40,091 nt of DNA, taken from sequence record PQ821641; one strand, 5' to 3'. Each line of letters begins with the position of its first letter. Position 1 is the first letter of the stretch. The position numbers and the translations under genes were made by a program. This stretch comes from Escherichia phage SD6. Below, in pieces: positions 1 through 8,087 of this stretch. Below the pieces are notes generated by a model. It had not been told where the DNA came from, searched no databases, and saw only the letters and a list, made by a program, of their open reading frames with translations.

Positions 1-97
1 ACTGACCTTAGCTACTGTAGTCAAGGACTTTAGGTAACACCTTAATAGAAGCTCACTTAGGGTCATCCTACTTATTGGTCTATCCTAGTGTCGCCTG

Positions 98-496
98 ACC
101 TACGGTCCTTGACCTACAGTGGCTGTGGCCTACAGTAGTGACGATGAGTTTTGGACCAAAAGTTTGAGACCACATCTCACAGTTCAAGAACCTCAAGTCT
201 CCCCATAGGCCCTCTTTAAGTCCAGACCAAAGGCCCTACCCGTTACTGCTCCTTGCAGTCACAGCCAGTCTATCATAAGGTTGGACCGATGGTCAAGACT
301 TCAGGTCAACGATAGGTTGAGGCTATGGCTGTAGGTCGGGACGATAGGTAGGGACTATGGGTCTTCTCTGAGTCTCTATCTGTATAGTGTTATAGTATAA
401 CATTACGTCCTACACCTACAGTCTCACTAACCTACAGTCTCACTAACCTACAGTCTCAACCATAAGACACCAACACCTACAGTCACAGACCTACAG
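98..496 (+). repeat. Left-end array of about 8 short direct repeats (core ACCTACAGT, including tandem CCTACAGTCTCACTAA units)
   Basis: Copies of ACCTAC(A/G)GT read at about 98, 112, 128, 413, 430, 445, 473 and 488; the position corresponds to the CCTAAAG-type repeat array near the T7 left end. Confidence 0.55.
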
Positions 497-608
497 TTAA
501 TAGACACAAAGCTATAGACTTAAGGTCAAAGACATGTTAGTCAAAGACTATATCCTCTTACACCATGGGGCCGACGATAGCTTAATCAATATTATTTAAG
601 ATTACCTA

Positions 609-639
609 TTGACTATATGTCTAGACTATGGCCTAATAG
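609..639 (+). promoter_or_regulatory. Host sigma70 early promoter, T7 A1-like
   Basis: TTGACT -35 followed by a 17-19 nt spacer and a TAATAG-like -10; the surrounding sequence resembles the T7 A1 region; the -10 is not unambiguous. Confidence 0.4.
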
Positions 640-749
640 CTTCCGTCAACACGACACGGCAACAACCGGATAGTGAAGACGCCGGGTCATCCCGGTTAAG
701 TAGACAGCCTGATAAGTCATACGAACAACAGGCAGATGACAGAAAGTAG

Positions 750-779
750 TTGACAAGCAGTAACGATAAGATGTAAGCT
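750..779 (+). promoter_or_regulatory. Host sigma70 early promoter, T7 A2/A3-like
   Basis: TTGACA at 750-755, 18-nt spacer, TAAGCT at 774-779, then gtaccacatcgaaac, which closely matches the sequence downstream of T7 A3; upstream CCGGTTAAGTAGACAGCCTGATAAGTC also matches the T7 early region. Confidence 0.55.
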
Positions 780-948
780 GTACCACATCGAAACAACGGT
801 GACGACCAACACTGAAATGGTCTACCTGAAGTCATCTGACTGAAGGGAATGCTCTTTAACAATCTGGATAAACTCTTAATGTGCGCCGATAGCTAGCTTG
901 CTAGCGATAGCGACTAACCACAGGGTCTTTGAGTCTACATCTGAAGGC

Positions 949-969
949 CCTGACTGATAGTCACTAACT
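949..969 (+). repeat. 21-bp element CCTGACTGATAGTCACTAACT, copy 1, just upstream of the first early ORF
   Basis: Exact 21-bp direct repeat of the element at 1265-1285. Confidence 0.5.
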
Positions 970-975
970 TAACGG

Positions 976-1176
976 ATGGACACTATGAAACACTTAAGCA
1001 CAATCACTAATCACTATGAAATATTCGTGGACACTAAAGGTTATGCGTGGATTCAGCTTAAAGAGATGAGAGGAGCGCGTCACCGTATGGTAGTGCGCAA
1101 GGTCTCAAGCAAGCCGTTTAGCAACTACAGCGTAGATACTGTGCGTATAGACAACGAGATCTACCTGATAGACTAA
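976..1176 (+). CDS. Hypothetical early protein (66 aa)
   Basis: First ORF after the host promoters, + strand; no recognisable family; not acidic like Ocr. Confidence 0.5.
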   Translation: MDTMKHLSTITNHYEIFVDTKGYAWIQLKEMRGARHRMVVRKVSSKPFSNYSVDTVRIDNEIYLID

Positions 1177-1264
1177 CAGATAACCGTGAGTCCTACAGCG
1201 AGCGCCTCAGCTCCTTATTTCGCTAACTGAAAGTGATTAACTACAGGTCGTTAACTAATAGCGG

Positions 1265-1285
1265 CCTGACTGATAGTCACTAACT
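1265..1285 (+). repeat. 21-bp element CCTGACTGATAGTCACTAACT, copy 2, followed by TATAGG
   Basis: Exact repeat of 949-969; here it runs into ACTATAGGA, a partial phage-promoter core. Confidence 0.5.
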
Positions 1286-1299
1286 ATAGGATAAACAAG

Positions 1300-1488
1300 A
1301 TGGCATACCGTAAGATGACCAAAGCAGAAGTGATAGCCGAAGTTCTTGAAACTTTCCGCGAGTTCCCTGAGACTTTCAGAGGCGATGACATAGCAAAACA
1401 GCAGTATTGGAATGACTACACAGACAGTCTCTGCAAGTCTGGCATGATTTCCAAACACCAGTATAACACTTGGTCAAACCCATTCTAA
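1300..1488 (+). CDS. Hypothetical early protein (62 aa)
   Basis: ATG with AGGA about 9 nt upstream; early-region position. Confidence 0.55.
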   Translation: MAYRKMTKAEVIAEVLETFREFPETFRGDDIAKQQYWNDYTDSLCKSGMISKHQYNTWSNPF

Positions 1489-1504
1489 CGTAAGGAATAT
1501 AACC

Positions 1505-2029
1505 ATGAAACTGATAGGCAAAGGCGCGTTCACTAAGTGCTACCTGAAGGATTGCGGGAAGCGTGTTCTTCTGGTCTCTTCTGACCCGATAAAGGAGTGT
1601 ATGGCGTGGGGATGGTTCCCTGAGTCTCCACTGTTCCCTGAAGTCAAAATGATTGAGGTAGGCACGTATGAGATGGACTACATGCCACCAACGCGAGGTC
1701 TCAAGGCGCATTTAGATGATGACCAATGGCAGCTCTATCAGGTGCTGCGTGATTGCTTCTCACGGTCTCCGGTATTCTCTCGACCTGCTGAATTGTATCA
1801 CAAGTGGTACGAGATATTCCAAGATGCACACGACAGGTCTGCGTCTGAGACTGTGCGGGAGGGCCTGATGGATGTGCTGATGGCTCTGGATGCTTGCGCT
1901 AACTTCGGGCCAGACATTCAGTTTGAGATAAGCCCACGAAATGTACGGGCTGTGAATGGTAAGCTGATACTAGTGGATTGTTTTTTCCTTATGTCCAAAC
2001 TGCAAGAGGTGAGGTCATCAAGATGGTAA
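1505..2029 (+). CDS. Putative protein kinase-like early protein (short gp0.7-like)
   Basis: 174 aa; N-terminal IGKGAFTKCY resembles a Gly-rich loop and C-terminal ISPRNV...LILVDCFF resembles catalytic-loop/DFG-like motifs; position matches T7 gene 0.7; function tentative. Confidence 0.55.
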   Translation: MKLIGKGAFTKCYLKDCGKRVLLVSSDPIKECMAWGWFPESPLFPEVKMIEVGTYEMDYMPPTRGLKAHLDDDQWQLYQVLRDCFSRSPVFSRPAELYHKWYEIFQDAHDRSASETVREGLMDVLMALDACANFGPDIQFEISPRNVRAVNGKLILVDCFFLMSKLQEVRSSRW

Positions 2030-2199
2030 CTTATGGTCTCTGCCAGCACCACGTCGCCAACGCCCGGCTTATGGTCAGGACCGGGCAGTTAAACCATGAT
2101 GCGACTATGCGTCTCCTGAAAGCGGTCTACGAGGGCCGCAAGCTCATACACGACGCTTACACGCTGAGGACAGGTAAACATGTACCAGATAACTTATAG
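2023..2199 (+). CDS. Hypothetical small early protein (58 aa)
   Basis: ATG at 2023 overlaps the upstream stop (ATGGTAA), suggesting translational coupling; the ORF track begins this frame at a TTG at 1978. Confidence 0.4.
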   Translation: MVTYGLCQHHVANARLMVRTGQLNHDATMRLLKAVYEGRKLIHDAYTLRTGKHVPDNL

Positions 2200-2305
2200 C
2201 AGTGAACAGGCGTTCTACGAGGGATGCTACGAGATGATGAAGCGCGGGGCTTGCTATGTGGCTAATCACCATAGCCTGACCATAACGCTGACAGGTGGAT
2301 ACTGA
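2180..2305 (+). CDS. Hypothetical small early protein (41 aa)
   Basis: ATG with GAGGA about 9 nt upstream; below the ORF-track size cut-off; weak call. Confidence 0.25.
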   Translation: MYQITYSSEQAFYEGCYEMMKRGACYVANHHSLTITLTGGY

Positions 2306-2376
2306 GCGATAGACGAGAGGTCATCTAACTGATAGGTGGCCTCAAAGATTATCACTTAAATTGATAGGAGTTAACT

Positions 2377-2481
2377 ATGAGCACTGCAATCATCTGGACT
2401 ATCTCAGGCTTCGTAGCGTGGGGAATGTTTACTCTAGTAGGCAAACTACCAGTACTTACTCAACTGTTATGGGGTTTATGA
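2377..2481 (+). CDS. Hypothetical small hydrophobic peptide (34 aa)
   Basis: AGGAG 6-7 nt upstream of the ATG; hydrophobic sequence MSTAIIWTISGFVAWGMFTLVG...; its stop overlaps the next start. Confidence 0.35.
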   Translation: MSTAIIWTISGFVAWGMFTLVGKLPVLTQLLWGL

Positions 2482-2681
2482 CTATGGATATCGCACTATT
2501 GATAGCCATAGGCTATGGACTTATAGTCTACGTGCTGGTGAGAGACATCAACAAAGCGCGTAAAGTCTACAAATTCAACTATGTACGTCTGGGTCGCTGG
2601 ACTGTGCGCCAACCTAACGGACAATTCGTGCGCAACTTAGCGAACGTCTGGGATATAGCAACACTTGGGAGCAAACTATAA
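2478..2681 (+). CDS. Hypothetical small membrane protein (67 aa)
   Basis: ATGA overlap with the upstream ORF; predicted transmembrane segment IALLIAIGYGLIVYVLV. Confidence 0.45.
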   Translation: MTMDIALLIAIGYGLIVYVLVRDINKARKVYKFNYVRLGRWTVRQPNGQFVRNLANVWDIATLGSKL

Positions 2682-3007
2682 TGAACAAGTCATACGGGAT
2701 CAATCTGGTACACTCTATGGACGCAGACATGCAAATGCTAAGCCTACTGGCTACCGGGTATCGTCACGGAACGTCAAGTCACTCCGCACGTCAACAGCAG
2801 GAGAGGGACCGGGTACTGCAAGCAAGACTCCGGGCTGAGGGACATAAGTCCGAACTGATGTGTCTGGCGTATGGTGGACGACCAATCGCCGACGATGGTA
2901 AACTTCTGGTCTCAGGCTGGAAGGCGATAGACCAACGGTCAACCCTCAAGCACACGACTCACGGTGACTTCAGTCATCTTCACGCTAACCCACTGATATG
3001 CAAGTAA
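2681..3007 (+). CDS. Hypothetical early protein (108 aa)
   Basis: TAATG overlap with the upstream ORF; no recognisable family. Confidence 0.5.
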   Translation: MNKSYGINLVHSMDADMQMLSLLATGYRHGTSSHSARQQQERDRVLQARLRAEGHKSELMCLAYGGRPIADDGKLLVSGWKAIDQRSTLKHTTHGDFSHLHANPLICK

Positions 3008-3014
3008 TTCTGAC

Positions 3015-3034
3015 TTAACTATCACTATAGGACT
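3015..3034 (+). promoter_or_regulatory. Phage-RNAP promoter-like sequence directly upstream of the RNAP gene
   Basis: TTAACTATCACTATAGGACT shares the upstream half with the promoters at 26425 and 39668 and the ACTATAGG core with all others. Confidence 0.5.
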
Positions 3035-3100
3035 CAAGGTCTAAGACTCCAAGTGAAAGACCAAAGAGACTCTAAGTGAAAGACTAATAACAAGGACTTT
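3031..3100 (+). promoter_or_regulatory. Possible RNase III processing site (R1-like) in the RNAP leader
   Basis: Contains the GACTCAAGGT motif shared with the other putative RNase III hairpins, plus internal repeats CTAAGACTCCAAGTGAAAGAC / CTCTAAGTGAAAGAC. Confidence 0.3.
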
Positions 3101-3104
3101 AAGT

Positions 3105-5786
3105 ATGAGCGTCATCTCTATTGACAAACACGACTTCTCTGATGTGTCGAACGCTATTGAGCCGTTCAACCTGCTGGCTGACCATTACGGGCAAGACCTT
3201 GCAGTCAAACAGCTTCAACTTGAGCATGAGGCATATAGTGAAGGCGAGCGACGTTTCATCAAGAACCTTGAGCGCCAGACAGAGCGCGGGGAACTGGCAG
3301 ACAATCAGGTCGCCAAGCCTTTGATGCAGACTCTGGTCCCTAAGATTGCGCAAGCCGTCAAGGAGTGGCATGAAGGTCCAGACGGGAAGCTGTCAACCTC
3401 TCGTCCTAGCGTAGCGTTCACCATGTTGAGCACTGAAGAGAAGGCCGTCAAGGACCGCTCTCTGCGTATCTCTTGCGAGTCTGCTGCAGTTATTATACTG
3501 AAGGTCATCCTCTCCAAGCTGGTCAAGCCTGAAGGGATACCGATTACACCGATGGCCTCAGCGATAGGTCGCACACTTGAGGACGAAATCCGATTCGGTC
3601 GCATCCGTGACAAGGAGAAGGAGCACTTCAAGAAGGCGATAGCTGAGAACCTGAACAAGCGAGCTGGGGCATCCTACAAGAAAGCCTACATGCAAGCGGT
3701 TGAGGCCTCCATGCTGGAGCAGGGCCAACTGGAAGATGCGTGGGGTACTTGGAGTCCGACCGAGGCGGTACACGTTGGAATCAAGATGCTTGAGATTGTC
3801 ATCCAGTCCACACAACTGGTCGAGCTTAAGCGTTATGGTGCTGGCAATGCAGCGGCTGATGTTGAGATGGTCCACCTGTCAGACTTCTGGGTCAAGAAGA
3901 TGGCACAACGAGGATTCAGCCTTGCGGGTATCGCTCCAGTCTACCAACCTTGCGTCGTTCCACCTAAGCCGTGGACTGGTGTCGTAGGCGGGGGGTATTG
4001 GGCCAAAGGACGCAGACCTCTACCACTGATTCGCTTAGGGTCTAAGTCTGCGGTGGCACGTTACGAAGACGTGTACATGCCTGAAGTCTATGACGCTGTG
4101 AATATCATCCAGAATACACCTTGGAAGGTGAACAAGAAGGTTCTGGACGTGGTGAACATGGTTGAGAAGTTGAACAACACGCCTATTGATGACATCCCTC
4201 AGATGGAGCCATTGAAGCCTGAAGACTATGCGGGTGAGACTGAAGAGGAGCTCAAGGCATGGAAGAAATCTGCTGCTGGTATCTACCGCCGAGAGAAGGC
4301 CCGGCAGTCACGCAGATTGTCACTGAGCTTTATCGTTAACCAAGCGAACAAGTTCTCTCAGTTCAAGGCCATCTGGTTCCCATACAACATGGACTGGCGC
4401 GGTCGAGTCTACGCTGTACCGATGTTCAACCCTCAGGGTAACGACATGCAGAAGGGTCTCCTTACTCTGGCAGTCGGTAAGCCTATTGGTGCTGATGGTT
4501 TCAAATGGCTGAAGGTCCACGGTGCAAACTGCGCGGGTGTCGATAAAGTCACCTTCGAGGAGCGAATCAAGTGGGTGGAAGACAACCACGACAATATCAT
4601 GTCTGCTGCTAAGGCACCGATGGATAGTATTGAGTGGTGGGGCAAGCTAGACTCTCCGTTCTGCTTCCTTGCGTTCTGCTTCGAGTATGCTGGCGTAATG
4701 CACCACGGCTTGTCTTACTCCTGCTCGCTGCCGATAGCGTTCGATGGGTCCTGCTCTGGGATTCAGCACTTCAGCGCGATGCTTCGTGACCACATTGGTG
4801 GACATGCAGTGAACCTGACGCCATCCGGTAAGGTCCAAGACATCTACCGCATCGTGTCTGATCGCATTGAGGAGGAGCTTAAAGTCCTGCTGGTTAACGG
4901 TACTGACAACGAGGTGGTTACCCACGAGGACAAGAAAACTGGTGAGATTACCGAGCGTATCAAGCTAGGGACACGAGAGCTGGCCCGTCAGTGGCTGACC
5001 TACGGTATGTCACGCAAGGTGACTAAGCGTTCGGTCATGACTCTGGCCTACGGGTCGAAAGAGTATGGCTTCGCAGACCAAGTTTACGAGGACATCGTGA
5101 TGCCAGCGATTGACTCAGGGTCTGGAGCTATGTTCACTGAACCAAGCCAAGCATCTCGCTTCATGGCTAAGATGATCTGGGAAGCTGTGAGTGTGACCGT
5201 AGTTGCTGCGGTTGACGCGATGAAGTGGCTTCAAGGTGCTGCCAAGCTGCTGGCTGCTGAAGTGAAGGACAAGAAGACTGGAGAAATCCTGAAGCCTTGC
5301 CTTCCGGTACACTGGGTCACACCTGATGGTTTCCCGGTCTGGCAGGAATACCGCAAGAAGGATACCACTCGTCTGAATCTGATGTTCTTAGGTTCATTCA
5401 ACCTTCAACCTACGGTCAACAAAGGCGCGAAGAAAGAGCTGGATAAGCACAAGCAGGAGTCAGGCATTAGCCCGAACTTCGTCCACTCACAAGATGGTAG
5501 CCACCTACGCAAGACTGTAGTCCACACTCATCGCAAGTATGGCGTGATGTCATTCGCAGTGATTCATGATAGCTTTGGGACCATCCCTGCTGACGCTGAG
5601 TATCTATTCCGTGGTGTCCGTGAGACGATGGTCGAGACCTACCGCGACAACGATGTGCTGCTTGACTTCTATGAGCAGTTCGAATACCAGCTTCATGAGA
5701 GTCAGCGCGACAAGTTACCTGAGCTTCCGAAGAAAGGTAAACTGAATATCGAAGACATCTTGTCTTCAGACTTTGCATTCGCTTAA
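3105..5786 (+). CDS. T7-type single-subunit DNA-directed RNA polymerase (gene 1)
   Basis: 893 aa, collinear with T7 RNAP from the N terminus (FSD...FN.LADHYG) to the C-terminal SDFAFA, including the PCVVPPKPWTG and IHDSFGT motifs. Confidence 0.98.
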   Translation: MSVISIDKHDFSDVSNAIEPFNLLADHYGQDLAVKQLQLEHEAYSEGERRFIKNLERQTERGELADNQVAKPLMQTLVPKIAQAVKEWHEGPDGKLSTSRPSVAFTMLSTEEKAVKDRSLRISCESAAVIILKVILSKLVKPEGIPITPMASAIGRTLEDEIRFGRIRDKEKEHFKKAIAENLNKRAGASYKKAYMQAVEASMLEQGQLEDAWGTWSPTEAVHVGIKMLEIVIQSTQLVELKRYGAGNAAADVEMVHLSDFWVKKMAQRGFSLAGIAPVYQPCVVPPKPWTGVVGGGYWAKGRRPLPLIRLGSKSAVARYEDVYMPEVYDAVNIIQNTPWKVNKKVLDVVNMVEKLNNTPIDDIPQMEPLKPEDYAGETEEELKAWKKSAAGIYRREKARQSRRLSLSFIVNQANKFSQFKAIWFPYNMDWRGRVYAVPMFNPQGNDMQKGLLTLAVGKPIGADGFKWLKVHGANCAGVDKVTFEERIKWVEDNHDNIMSAAKAPMDSIEWWGKLDSPFCFLAFCFEYAGVMHHGLSYSCSLPIAFDGSCSGIQHFSAMLRDHIGGHAVNLTPSGKVQDIYRIVSDRIEEELKVLLVNGTDNEVVTHEDKKTGEITERIKLGTRELARQWLTYGMSRKVTKRSVMTLAYGSKEYGFADQVYEDIVMPAIDSGSGAMFTEPSQASRFMAKMIWEAVSVTVVAAVDAMKWLQGAAKLLAAEVKDKKTGEILKPCLPVHWVTPDGFPVWQEYRKKDTTRLNLMFLGSFNLQPTVNKGAKKELDKHKQESGISPNFVHSQDGSHLRKTVVHTHRKYGVMSFAVIHDSFGTIPADAEYLFRGVRETMVETYRDNDVLLDFYEQFEYQLHESQRDKLPELPKKGKLNIEDILSSDFAFA

Positions 5787-5802
5787 CAACAGGAGAGACA
5801 AC

Positions 5803-6003
5803 ATGCAATTCGCACACCGTGTATCAAACGTATCTGGTGGCAACAAGGTAGTGACCGTAACCTCAGTGGCGGGCAAAGGTCTGGTCAAGGTGACTATGGT
5901 CCCGACTGGAACGGCTAAGGACAAAGGTATCAGCCATAAGGAGCTGATTCAGGTGATCCAGTGGGCACACGAGAAGGCCCTACGGGAAGAGGCAACCAAA
6001 TGA
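5803..6003 (+). CDS. Hypothetical protein (66 aa)
   Basis: ATG at 5803 with AGGAGA 6 nt upstream, immediately after the RNAP gene. Confidence 0.55.
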   Translation: MQFAHRVSNVSGGNKVVTVTSVAGKGLVKVTMVPTGTAKDKGISHKELIQVIQWAHEKALREEATK

Positions 6004-6077
6004 CAGACCTACAGTTACTGGCCTTGTGGCTGGGAGCACTAGCAGTATTCACTTTAATCCGACGCAGAAGAGGTTAA
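6000..6077 (+). CDS. Hypothetical small transmembrane peptide (25 aa)
   Basis: ATGA overlap with the upstream stop; hydrophobic core followed by RRRRG; weak call. Confidence 0.25.
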   Translation: MTDLQLLALWLGALAVFTLIRRRRG

Positions 6078-6100
6078 CCTAAACTATCACTATAGGATTA
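6078..6100 (+). promoter_or_regulatory. Phage promoter (phi1.1-like)
   Basis: CCTAAACTATCACTATAGGATTA matches the window-wide promoter consensus. Confidence 0.7.
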
Positions 6101-6145
6101 GACTCAAGGTCATGACTCAAAGTCGTGGCCTTCATGATTAACCCT
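6101..6145 (+). promoter_or_regulatory. Putative RNase III site (R1.1-like hairpin)
   Basis: GACTCAAGGTCAT...GTGGCCTTCATGATTA; AAGGUCA can pair with UGGCCUU; same architecture as the elements at 13588 and 37264; T7 has R1.1 at this position. Confidence 0.5.
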
Positions 6146-6171
6146 ATAACCTAAACAACTGGAGCTACAAC

Positions 6172-6351
6172 ATGTATCAGAACACTATCAACTTCGAGCG
6201 CATCCGTGAACGTCAGAAGACTGAAGGTTACATTCCGAAGGGCCGCAAGCTGAACAAGACCAAGCGTGGCGGCGGTGTCAAGGGTGCCTTCCGTAACGCT
6301 GAGGGTAAAGACTCTCTGGTTAACCAAGCGAAATACTTCGCAGGAGCATAA
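6172..6351 (+). CDS. gp1.1-like small basic protein
   Basis: 59 aa; contains KGRKLNKTKR, as in T7 gp1.1; correct syntenic position. Confidence 0.65.
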   Translation: MYQNTINFERIRERQKTEGYIPKGRKLNKTKRGGGVKGAFRNAEGKDSLVNQAKYFAGA

Positions 6352-6355
6352 TGAT

Positions 6356-6643
6356 ATGGGAATGTTCTCAAGAGCACATAGTGGAAACCTGAACACCCTG
6401 CGTAAAGCCATCCACAACTGGCAGTCCGAGACAGACTATAACGCAGTGGTCAGCACTTGGTTTGACACGGTGATGAACAGGCACTGCGTCCGGGCGGTTA
6501 TAGTCCACATTCATACACGAGAGGTCCTCATCGAGAAGGACTTCACGGACTACCCGAATATCCACGACGAAGATGTGCAGACAGTAGCGGTTGCCACTTG
6601 GTTTAACAAACAGTTCAACGACTACACTGGTCGATTCCTTTAA
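6356..6643 (+). CDS. gp1.2-like protein (putative host dGTPase inhibitor)
   Basis: 95 aa from ATG 6356 with AGGAG about 9 nt upstream; SGNL and HDEDV motifs as in T7 gp1.2; the ORF track extends this frame upstream from a GTG. Confidence 0.7.
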   Translation: MGMFSRAHSGNLNTLRKAIHNWQSETDYNAVVSTWFDTVMNRHCVRAVIVHIHTREVLIEKDFTDYPNIHDEDVQTVAVATWFNKQFNDYTGRFL

Positions 6644-6660
6644 TTCTGGAGACACTAACG

Positions 6661-7701
6661 ATGACAACTATCAAAACTAACCCGCACCGCGCTGTAGATT
6701 ACTCTGAGTCTGGCATTAAGAAGGCACTGGAAGCAGCCGGGTCTCTGGAAGCTGAAGTGAAGTATGATGGTGTCAGGTTGAATATTCCGGTGCTGCGAGA
6801 GGGTGAGACCTATTGGTTAAGCCGTGAGTCTAAACCGCTTCCAGCACTGGAGTGGATGAACTCTGAGTTAGGCAATGCGTGGACTCAAGCTGACTGGCGA
6901 TGGTTCCTGCGTCAAGCTGGGTACGAAGGCGTGGGCCTGATGATTGACGGAGAGGTCATGGTAAAAGGTGTTGACTTTAACACGTCTTCCGGTCTCATCC
7001 GAACGAAGTGGCTGAAGCCTAGCAACGAGGAGTTCGCTGAATGTTATCCGGGCCGTGGCAAGAAGGTCCCATTCTGGGTCGCACGGTCACTACTTCAGGT
7101 TGTGGTATATGGCGTTGTTGATATGACAACCATAGCAGACCCGAAAGCCGAAGGTCCTATCCATAGCGTAACCCGACTGAAGGCCGAAGCCATCGTCCCT
7201 CTCCTCCAGAAATACTTCCCGGAAATCGACTGGGTTCTGTCTGAGTCACACACGGTCTACGACCTTGAGTCGCTCAACTCCCTGTACGAAGAGAAGCGTC
7301 TTGAAGGACATGAGGGTCTGGTAGTCAAGGACCCGCTTGGTAAATACAAGCGTGGCAAGAAGTCAGGCATGTGGAAGATGAAGCCTGAGGAGACCATCGA
7401 CGGGACCGTGTGTGGACTCGTGTGGGGGACTCCGGGAAAGGCTAACGAAGGTAAGGTGATTGGCTTCGAGGTGCTGCTTGAGGATGGCATGATGGTTAAC
7501 GCCTGCGGTCTGACTGAAGAACAGAAGGATGAGTTTACGGAAGCCTGTAACACTGATACATATATTCTCGGTGGAATCAATCCATACGAAGGATGGCAGT
7601 GTGAAGTCCTCTTCATGGAGCGGTTCCCAGATGGTTCCCTTCGTCATCCTAGCTTCAAGTGCTGGCGTGGAACGGAAGACAATCCAACCGTTAAGAGTTA
7701 A
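6661..7701 (+). CDS. ATP-dependent DNA ligase (gene 1.3)
   Basis: 346 aa; T7-ligase-like IKTNP...KYDGVR (adenylation lysine), GEVMVKGVDFNTSSGL, EGHEGLVVKDP and GSLRHPSF motifs. Confidence 0.97.
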   Translation: MTTIKTNPHRAVDYSESGIKKALEAAGSLEAEVKYDGVRLNIPVLREGETYWLSRESKPLPALEWMNSELGNAWTQADWRWFLRQAGYEGVGLMIDGEVMVKGVDFNTSSGLIRTKWLKPSNEEFAECYPGRGKKVPFWVARSLLQVVVYGVVDMTTIADPKAEGPIHSVTRLKAEAIVPLLQKYFPEIDWVLSESHTVYDLESLNSLYEEKRLEGHEGLVVKDPLGKYKRGKKSGMWKMKPEETIDGTVCGLVWGTPGKANEGKVIGFEVLLEDGMMVNACGLTEEQKDEFTEACNTDTYILGGINPYEGWQCEVLFMERFPDGSLRHPSFKCWRGTEDNPTVKS

Positions 7702-7712
7702 CTAAACGTCAA

Positions 7713-7753
7713 CCCAGTGGTCTTCTGACTGCTGGGATTCTTTGCTTTGTGTT
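7713..7753 (+). terminator. Putative early intrinsic terminator (TE-like) after the ligase gene
   Basis: Hairpin CCCAGUGG-loop-CUGCUGGG with G-U pairs, followed by the U-rich AUUCUUUGCUUUGUGUU; T7 TE lies at the equivalent position. Confidence 0.45.
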
Positions 7754-7784
7754 AGCAAGATATTGTCCGGCCGGCGGCCTGAAC

Positions 7785-7803
7785 CTAAACTATCACTGTA
7801 GGA
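7785..7803 (+). promoter_or_regulatory. Phage promoter, ACTGTAGG variant
   Basis: CCTAAACTATCACTGTAGGACAA. Confidence 0.6.
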
Positions 7804-7832
7804 CAACCATAACCGACCAAAGGAGAAACCTT

Positions 7833-8087
7833 ATGTCTAAAAACTTAATGTTCAACCGATTTACTCGAAGCTTCCACCTGTCGCATAGCCCATTCAGCTT
7901 CCATAAAGCTAATCAACCATTACCCCGCTTTGGTAAGACAGTGGCTCTGTCTCCAGCAGTTCATGCGCTAGTCACCCGCAAGTCTATGCTGAAGGCTATG
8001 GATAAAGAACAAGTTGATGTGCCTGTGGTCGTTACAAAATGGCCTCGCATTAAGCTGGCACTTCTGGTAATTAAGGAGGCGCTCTGA
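7833..8087 (+). CDS. Hypothetical protein (84 aa, gene 1.5/1.6 position)
   Basis: ATG at 7833 with AGGAGA upstream; the ORF track starts this frame at an upstream non-ATG codon. Confidence 0.55.
   Translation: MSKNLMFNRFTRSFHLSHSPFSFHKANQPLPRFGKTVALSPAVHALVTRKSMLKAMDKEQVDVPVVVTKWPRIKLALLVIKEAL

Follow-up and report, generated by a model that had tools for sequence, protein, structure and literature searches.

The window analyzed here, the whole 40,091 bp sequence of Escherichia phage SD6 (record PQ821641), constitutes the complete genome of a T7-family phage of Kayfunavirus (K1F-like) type. Between its host-promoter region and the gene for the single-subunit RNA polymerase (RNAP), positions 976-3007 contain eight plus-strand open reading frames (ORFs; Table 1). 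The third of these, ORF3, is predicted to assume a minimal protein-kinase-like fold and, together with ORF2, stands in the slot that is held in phage K1F by ocr, the gene for the DNA mimic Ocr. An original prediction, made from the letters of the sequence, had placed seven to nine small ORFs ahead of the RNAP gene and had regarded several as translationally coupled. Both points hold, as four junctions overlap, namely ORF3/ORF4 (ATGgTAA), ORF4/ORF5 (20 nucleotides), ORF6/ORF7 (ATGA) and ORF7/ORF8 (TAATG), and a good Shine-Dalgarno sequence precedes six of the eight starts. Across positions 900-3100 the window is 86-94% identical to Kayfunaviruses of Escherichia, Citrobacter, Salmonella, Cronobacter and Enterobacter, whose matched genes are without exception annotated 'hypothetical protein', and the published accounts of the near-identical phages SH4 and SH5 and of another Kayfunavirus are silent on the genes of the block.

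The eight ORFs are real genes rather than chance open frames, because seven of them match PHROG families (all labelled 'unknown function'), because the identical set of eight coding sequences, including those of 34 and 41 residues, was independently annotated in Cronobacter phage vB_CtuP_B1 and Enterobacter phage HHH, and because ratios of non-synonymous to synonymous substitution (dN/dS; Nei-Gojobori counts, window against eight relatives) are low. The ranges are 0.07-0.30 for ORF2, 0.06-0.13 for ORF3, 0.02-0.07 for ORF5, 0.05-0.26 for ORF6, 0.11-0.43 for ORF7 and 0.12-0.25 for ORF8; ORF4 is weakly constrained (0.26-1.2) and has a variable C-terminus. Scans of all eight proteins against the Pfam, NCBIfam and PADLOC models gave no significant match.

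Table 1. Genes and signals in and around the early block of Escherichia phage SD6, in window coordinates.
Feature	Position	Strand	Description	Basis or key residues
Candidate host sigma-70 promoter	607..660	+	T7 A1-like, -35 TTGACT at 609-614	Local alignment to T7 A1
Candidate host promoter	749..802	+	T7 A3-like, -35 TTGACA at 750-755, conserved GTACCACAT start region	Local alignment to T7 A3
Hairpin	908..969	+	3' side is copy 1 (949-969) of the 21-nucleotide element CCTGACTGATAGTCACTAACT, 27 nucleotides 5' of ORF1	Fold z = -1.86, exact repeat
ORF1	976..1176	+	66 aa, phrog_10124, patchy accessory gene	
Hairpin	1186..1296	+	Strong, irregular, RNase III-like; 3' side is copy 2 (1265-1285) of the 21-nucleotide element	Fold z = -4.1
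ORF2	1300..1488	+	62 aa, phrog_336, first half of the cassette with ORF3	
ORF3	1505..2029	+	174 aa, phrog_11084, predicted minimal protein-kinase-like fold	G5, G7, F9, K30, E141, N146, D158
ORF4	2023..2199	+	58 aa, phrog_5058, remote T7 gp0.4 homolog by sequence	Start overlaps ORF3 stop codon
ORF5	2180..2305	+	41 aa, weak phrog_33188 match, Kayfunavirus-restricted, highly conserved	
Hairpin	2303..2358	+	RNase III-like, between ORF5 and ORF6	Fold z = -4.1
ORF6	2377..2481	+	34-aa hydrophobic peptide, no PHROG family	
ORF7	2478/2484..2681	+	65-67 aa, phrog_2385, T3 gp0.6 / K1F '0.6' type	
ORF8	2681..3007	+	108 aa, phrog_7066, restricted to Kayfunavirus-like phages	
Phage-promoter core	3018..3031	+	Perfect ACTATCACTATAGG, 3' of the block and 5' of the RNAP gene	First genome copy
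RNAP gene	3105-5786		Single-subunit RNA polymerase	

The original prediction had seen in the block neither Ocr-like acidity nor a T3-type S-adenosylmethionine (SAM) hydrolase, and this stands. Asp and Glu together account for at most 15% of the residues in any block protein, whereas the Ocr proteins of T7 and K1F reach 29% and 27%, respectively. In tblastn searches with T7 and K1F Ocr, T3 SAM hydrolase and T7 and T3 gp0.7 no homolog was recovered anywhere in the genome, the best match of T3 gp0.3 to the whole window having an E-value of 0.29 and falling outside the block, and none of the block proteins matches the Ocr family (PHROG 2568) among the PHROGs.

Comparison with K1F, which carries an acidic Ocr of 169 residues, locates the exchange precisely. 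Window positions 601-1284 are 93.6% identical to K1F 419-1085, and this homology stops directly after the 21-nucleotide element (window 1265-1285, K1F 1066-1086), which marks the left swap junction; it resumes at window position 2022 (K1F 1622), at the start codon of a gp0.4-like gene, which marks the right one. Between the two junctions K1F has ocr, whereas the window has ORF2 and ORF3. The gene order is ORF1, Ocr, gp0.4-like, transmembrane peptide, 0.6, ORF8 and RNAP in K1F (NC_007456), where homologs of ORF1 (776-973, 88% identity) and ORF8 (2262-2465, 87% over residues 41-108) are encoded and left unannotated; it is ORF1, ORF2, ORF3, gp0.4-like, ORF5, transmembrane peptide, 0.6, ORF8 and RNAP in the window. 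The slot is the same one in which Ocr (T7 and K1F gp0.3) or the T3 SAM hydrolase is found, that is, the first cassette past the leader hairpin, followed by a gp0.4-like gene. ORF3 differs from both of these proteins in showing no sequence similarity, acidity or DNA-mimic character and in having an entirely different fold.

Among the Kayfunavirus-like loci sampled the ocr and ORF3 (mini-kinase) cassettes are mutually exclusive: none of the 11 with Ocr has a mini-kinase or ORF2, and none of the 10 with a mini-kinase has Ocr. In K1F, and in about one half of the relatives sampled, it is Ocr that fills the slot. The pairing of ORF2 with ORF3 recurs, at 55-67% identity, in Klebsiella phage VLCpiA2a and in one further locus (L008); in several Kayfunaviruses ORF3 is unaccompanied by ORF2. 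The ORF2 family itself belongs mainly to marine cyanophages of the T4-like and T7-like kinds (e.g. Syn9 gp68), an unexpectedly wide host range for an early protein of 62 residues.

Such an exchange might be taken to mean that the block consists of ordinary dispensable accessory genes, in which case occupancy of the Ocr slot would be uninformative on defence, the 21-mer and its RNase III site would constitute a recombination hotspot, and ORF3 would serve general takeover, e.g. by controlling transcription or RNA processing. Accessory behavior of this kind is seen in ORF1, ORF2, ORF5 and ORF6, which vary in presence and absence among close relatives; unrelated cassettes do follow the same 21-mer, and a note in its sequence record also credits T7 gp0.7 with roles outside defence. 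However, the strict either/or occupancy in 11 versus 10 loci, the adjacency of mini-kinase and Ocr in unrelated phages (see below) and the strong purifying selection on ORF3 argue against this explanation, which we consider unlikely, if the least so of the three alternatives weighed in this work.

The AlphaFold2 model of ORF3 has a mean predicted local distance difference test score (pLDDT) of 95.6 and a predicted template modelling score of 0.90. Its elements follow one another as strand β1, the Gly-loop, β2, β3, a helix, β4, β5, three helices, β6, a loop, β7, β8, an Asp, a short strand and a terminal helix. This is the topology of the protein-kinase-like core as far as the DFG motif, with nothing beyond it, and it has the bilobal organization in which a five-stranded N-lobe sheet is accompanied by the αC helix. 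Foldseek searches of the PDB retrieved the aminoglycoside phosphotransferases APH(2'')-IIa and APH(2'')-Ib and corramycin phosphotransferase as best matches, along with CDK2, Rio2 and choline/ethanolamine kinases (best E-value 9e-4, template modelling (TM) score ~0.4). Against viral structures (BFVD) the first match (TM score 0.87) belongs to the ORF3 family itself and comes from Cellulophaga phage phi19:3; further matches include 'protein kinase' entries of Enterobacter phage IME278 and Ralstonia phage RSB1 as well as A0A7L7SMK1 (E-value 4.6e-5), which is treated as a T7 kinase homologue in PMC13645617.

In sequence searches of the PDB (phmmer and profile) ORF3 obtained sub-threshold matches only. 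The top profile match is CK2alpha, at a non-significant E-value of 0.17, in which FEISPRNV...LiLlD of ORF3 is aligned onto HRDVKPRNV...LRLID. A Pfam scan of 78 diverse relatives, with E-values up to 1 admitted, disclosed no shared family; a single member touched YrbL, at the level of noise. With ORF3 as query against 5.8 billion proteins, 160 clusters of 160-180 residues were obtained, mostly on contigs of 40-45 kb, and an exhaustive HMMER search recovered 761 family representatives (50%-identity clusters), 205 of them below 1e-30. Among the matches listed nearly all are stand-alone proteins of 155-200 residues, and one UniRef entry is named 'Serine/threonine kinase'. Homologs in 185,579 prokaryotic species genomes came to three, all on contigs of metagenome-assembled or single-amplified genomes. 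The ORF3 family is thus large, almost exclusive to phages and unmatched by the Pfam, NCBIfam and PADLOC models.

The pattern of conservation in this family is typical of an active site. The motifs IGKGAFTKCY and LILVDCFF, which had led the original prediction to ascribe kinase-like motifs to the 174-residue protein, are present and fall on invariant family columns, and the confident structure prediction and the fold matches support this ascription. G7, K30, E141, P144, R145, N146 and D158 are invariant in an alignment of 71 sequences, and G7, P45, E141, N146 and D158 in a broader one of 78 sequences whose mean column identity is 19%. Within the glycine-rich loop G7 is invariant and G5 and F9 are nearly so. 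The canonical β3 lysine site (position 24) is occupied by Lys in just 25 of the 71 sequences, and a VAIK-type lysine is therefore not a feature of the family; directly after β3, K30 and E31 are conserved, K30 being invariant or nearly so, and K30 may substitute for the β3 lysine. The catalytic loop takes the form Glu141-x4-Asn146, with Asn146 invariant and the site of the catalytic (HRD) Asp always Glu. A DFG-type Asp is represented by the invariant D158 in D-C-F-F, which aligns with the DWG motif of CK2 and the DPV motif of the T7 gp0.7 kinase (T7K). With its 174 residues the protein extends no more than about 15 positions past D158, and it lacks the activation segment and the substrate-binding lobe formed by helices αF-αI. 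Based on the model we conclude that ORF3 is predicted to be a minimal kinase-like fold which keeps the nucleotide- and metal-binding residues.

Reduced kinase domains without a normal activation segment are represented by the minimal bacterial effector kinases OspG/NleH and HopBF1 and by Bud32 and Rio, of about 200-260 residues. ORF3 resembles these in having a reduced kinase domain, and Rio2 is among its fold matches; it differs from them in its smaller size, in having Glu for the catalytic Asp and in the lack of a detectable sequence relationship. The ranking of the Foldseek matches, with aminoglycoside and corramycin phosphotransferases on top and choline/ethanolamine kinases behind, raises the alternative that ORF3 is a small-molecule kinase of the aminoglycoside/choline kinase kind, whose substrate would be a metabolite, a nucleotide signal or an antibiotic-like compound and not a protein. 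The missing activation segment and αF-αI helices, which bind protein substrates, would also fit such an enzyme, although on balance we regard it as distinctly unlikely. Less likely again, in our estimation, is a catalytically inactive pseudokinase that binds and sequesters a host protein or a nucleotide. The non-conserved β3 lysine, the Glu in place of the catalytic Asp and the absence of half of the kinase domain are all in its favor, but G7, E141, N146 and D158 remain invariant at so low a mean column identity, as does K30 or nearly so, and such an active-site-like pattern is usually eroded in pseudokinases.

The original prediction had likened ORF3 to a short gp0.7. The fold and the geometry of the motifs agree with that comparison; the PHROG assignment (11084, not 2828), the co-occurrence with full gp0.7 and the location in the Ocr slot instead of the 0.7 slot do not. 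In a profile comparison (hhalign) with an alignment of the T7K kinase domain built from 36 loci, ORF3 obtained a P-value of 0.011 and a probability of 3.8%, with G7, E141, N146 and D158 paired with T7K G76, D195, N200 and D213. The glycine loop G-x-G-x-F-[ST]-x-x-Y, the catalytic loop F-[DE]-x4-N-[IV] and the metal-binding segment N-G-x-[LV]...D of the two proteins align collinearly. In T7K the G76F substitution is catalytically dead and residues 213-215 form the DPV motif that replaces DFG (PMC13645617). A hidden Markov model (HMM) of the T7K domain has no match in the window, and ORF3 matches phrog_11084 only, not PHROG 2828; hence, as far as sequence comparison goes, ORF3 does not appear to belong to the T7 gp0.7 family. 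With T7K and JSS1_004 it has in common that it is an early gene 5' of the RNAP gene in T7-family phages, the kinase-like fold and the near exclusivity to phages. In contrast to T7K, with its 359 residues, the 174-residue ORF3 is devoid of the N-terminal ~65 residues and of the C-terminal DNA-binding shut-off domain, has Glu for the catalytic Asp and DCF for DPV, lacks a conserved β3 lysine and lies in the 0.3 (Ocr) slot rather than the 0.7 slot. We also considered ORF3 as a truncated gp0.7 and rejected this, as its family nearly always consists of stand-alone proteins of the size given above, is strongly constrained and co-occurs with full gp0.7.

Annotated records with an ORF3 homolog number 83 and include some Kayfunaviruses, Dickeya Aarhusviruses (among them Mysterion, Luksen and Katbat), Klebsiella podoviruses of 45 kb, the siphovirus Seurat, Cellulophaga phi19:3 and Pseudomonas phages of 98-175 kb. 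Two of the Dickeya Aarhusvirus homologs are annotated 'serine/threonine kinase'. In T7-like contigs the homolog lies upstream of the RNAP gene, and in three loci (L012-L014) it shares a single early region upstream of that gene with a full-length T7K homolog, the two being ~300-550 nucleotides apart. Among 80 loci retrieved with T7 gp0.7 as query (42-100% identity) none has an ORF3 homolog. In four loci (L025 and L027-L029) an ORF3 homolog is situated about 1 kb from an Ocr homolog, the order in L029 being Ocr (phrog_2568), one unknown gene and the ORF3 homolog. The family is not confined to single-domain proteins, as in L041 the ORF3-type domain forms the C-terminus of a 1078-residue protein (4394-7630) directly preceded by a 1454-residue protein with a helicase C domain (30-4394). 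No other Pfam domain was detected, and the arrangement resembles a 'polyvalent protein'. In another locus (L037) the homolog bears a Cys-rich tail. In Enterobacter phage vB_Ecl_MII_004 the homolog (1356-1879) is annotated as two coding sequences, its frame closing after 48 codons, which points either to a frameshifted pseudogene or to a sequencing error; the RNAP gene of this record is likewise split.

Immediately downstream of the exchanged slot lies ORF4, which is 73% identical to K1F gp02 and 41% identical to T7 gp0.4 over 41 residues (BLASTP E-value 3e-6). Profiles of the ORF4 and gp0.4 families align with a P-value of 1.6e-4 (hhalign), and ORF4 and T7 gp0.4 cross-match each other's PHROG, even though their best PHROGs differ (5058 versus 7202). 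The start of the gp0.4-like gene overlaps the stop codon of the slot-1 gene in T7 (1278), K1F (1623) and the window (2023) alike. On sequence grounds ORF4 is remotely homologous to T7 gp0.4, which it resembles in sequence, in its position after the 0.3 slot and in this overlap, and from which it differs in its best PHROG and in its variable, weakly constrained C-terminus. T7 gp0.4 is an FtsZ inhibitor (Kiro et al. 2013, as cited in PMC9372555). Infection by K1F mislocalises FtsZ and causes filamentation, and K1F is said to lack gene 0.4, the responsible peptide being unknown (PMC9372555). K1F gp02 (1623-1772) by itself gives no alignment to T7 gp0.4; it is tied to it through ORF4 as an intermediate sequence, through the profile comparison and through synteny. 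K1F gp02/ORF4 is hence, by homology, an obvious candidate for the FtsZ-inhibiting peptide sought in PMC9372555.

Upstream of the block are two candidate host promoters resembling T7 A1 and A3. The A1-like one was recognized by similarity only, and a simple consensus scan reported neither. The phage-promoter core is present in eight exact copies in the genome, with three near-matches at promoter-like sites, and has no copy within 976-3007. As the first copy begins at 3018, the block should be transcribed by the host polymerase only, in agreement with the original placement of these genes behind host promoters. A phage promoter ahead of ORF2 (TCACTAACTATAGG) was considered and rejected, as it is absent among the promoter-core matches. 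The core at 3018-3031 (context 3007-3040) would let the phage RNA polymerase boost its own gene. It shares the upstream 'acttaACTATCACTATAGG' context with two other copies, and at the corresponding site the T7 and T3 records list only the host promoter (C) and an RNase III site. Between this promoter and the RNAP start codon is a tandem 21-nucleotide direct repeat at 3044-3087 (AGACTCCAAGTGAAAGACCAA / AGACTCTAAGTGAAAGACTAA, spacing 23 nucleotides). Short tandem CCTACAGTCTCACTAA repeats at 411-460, near the left end and 5' of the host promoters, may be left-end or concatemer-junction repeats.

Irregular hairpins that greatly exceed shuffled controls in stability are formed by the intergenic regions 1177-1299 and 2300-2380 (z = -4.1 each), with a weaker one in 860-975; an Rfam scan of positions 1-8000 detected no known RNA family. 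RNase III processing at the three hairpins is predicted by analogy with the sites R0.3, R0.5 and R1 annotated in the T3 record, and on this analogy they probably split the early transcript into ORF1, ORF2-5 and ORF6-8. Nearly all of the Kayfunavirus loci examined carry one or two copies of the 21-nucleotide element, which lie some 27-48 nucleotides upstream of the first cassette gene.

Among the remaining genes, ORF1 is C-terminally shortened, having 66 codons against an open frame of 84 in three close relatives, and its PHROG match spans positions 1-59 of 77 only; the copy in the window may be decaying. Homologs of ORF1 are also found in N4-like and 150-kb coliphages. The two small membrane peptides of the original prediction can be recognized in ORF6 and in the N-terminus of ORF7, both of which are hydrophobic. 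ORF6 (hydropathy 1.66) is conserved in two relatives and is the positional analogue of T7 gp0.5 and K1F gp03, which are hydrophobic too. ORF7 has an N-terminal transmembrane helix (hydropathy 2.34, residues 3-21) and a basic tail. Both ORF7 (E-value 2.5e-30) and T3 gp0.6 (9e-30) match phrog_2385; ORF7 is 89% identical to K1F 0.6 and 35% to T3 gp0.6, and is unrelated to T7 gp0.6A (phrog_8393). Proteins of its type are widely conserved; in most of the loci that carry T7K, and in T3-like phages, the gene lies directly 5' of that for the gp0.7 kinase. The conserved core of ORF8 comprises residues ~25-108 and ends in the invariant His/Cys-rich tail HTTHGDFSHLHANPLICK; a search of the PDB with ORF8 gave no match. 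The possibility that ORF8 is a shut-off domain split off from gp0.7 was dismissed (hhalign probability below 1%). In locus L152, a contig of 39.7 kb, Ocr, T7K and homologs of ORF6, ORF7 and ORF8 are found together upstream of the RNAP gene; ORF8 can thus co-occur with T7K and is no simple alternative to it. Profile-HMM searches and structure prediction, as proposed at the outset, provided the kinase-like fold of ORF3 and assignments for ORF4 and ORF7, with the AlphaFold2 model of ORF8 (pLDDT 51) being uninformative. The initial view of the block proteins as unknowns therefore still describes ORF1, ORF2, ORF5, ORF6 and ORF8, which have no assigned function, and no longer ORF4, as a remote gp0.4 homolog, or ORF7, as a protein of the T3 gp0.6 type. 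As a whole the block is typical of an ordinary mosaic early operon built of exchangeable cassettes, in which ORF3 is the interesting element.

Based on these observations we propose, with a probability of roughly 55%, that the block is a class I early operon in which the ocr slot is filled by ORF2 and the minimal kinase-like ORF3, the latter phosphorylating host targets early in infection. The analysis shows that the genes are real, and it shows the fold of ORF3, its conserved residues, the exchange of cassettes, their mutual exclusivity and the near confinement of the family to phages; the catalysis by ORF3, its substrates and any anti-defence effect are what we infer. Under this proposal the host RNA polymerase would transcribe the block from the T7 A1/A3-like promoters and the RNase III-type hairpins would cut the transcript into the three units given above, with the conserved 21-nucleotide element forming both the 3' side of a processing hairpin and the left edge of the first exchangeable slot. 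ORF3 would then most likely bind ATP-Mg and transfer phosphate to host targets straight after infection. T7K is reported to counteract several defence systems (PMC13645617), as is JSS1_004 (Jiang et al. 2024, as cited in PMC13522605), and ORF3 could be an alternative tenant of the anti-restriction slot that acts, as they do, on defence or other host proteins. The ORF4 gp0.4-family peptide would most likely block assembly of the FtsZ ring, and ORF6 and ORF7 would be small membrane proteins of the T7 gp0.5 / T3 gp0.6 kind. The suggestion that ORF3 has an anti-defence or host-takeover role is strengthened by its exact exchange for ocr and by the adjacency to Ocr in unrelated phages.

Three points weigh against regarding ORF3 simply as a substitute for Ocr or for gp0.7. 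In other phages homologs of ORF3 co-occur with Ocr and with gp0.7. The early proteins show no depletion of Ser, Thr or Tyr, a test for a hyper-promiscuous kinase in which the samples are tiny; the same result speaks for the pseudokinase alternative. Finally, the cassette swap could reflect only a recombination hotspot. A bolder version of our proposal holds that ORF3 founds an ultra-minimal class of phage kinases (~170 residues, Glu as catalytic base, a lysine from the αC region and no substrate lobe) that is a functional alternative to Ocr and would, in the first minutes of infection, phosphorylate and so disarm restriction, BREX or other defences that sense nucleic acids, with the 21-nucleotide element as the point at which Kayfunaviruses exchange 'mimic' for 'kinase' counter-defence cassettes and vice versa. 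This we offer as speculation that is probably wrong, though worth somewhat more credence than any of the three alternatives.

The phage kinases of the gp0.7 type have recently been shown to be broad counter-defence weapons, and the ORF3 family, in one genus, fills exactly the locus usually held by Ocr. It represents a second kinase-like family beside the gp0.7 type, roughly half as large as the gp0.7 kinase and with an unusual active site. If active, ORF3 would rank with the smallest kinase domains known and would reveal what the fold can do without. As a possible new enzyme of counter-defence or host takeover it is a candidate that can be tested.

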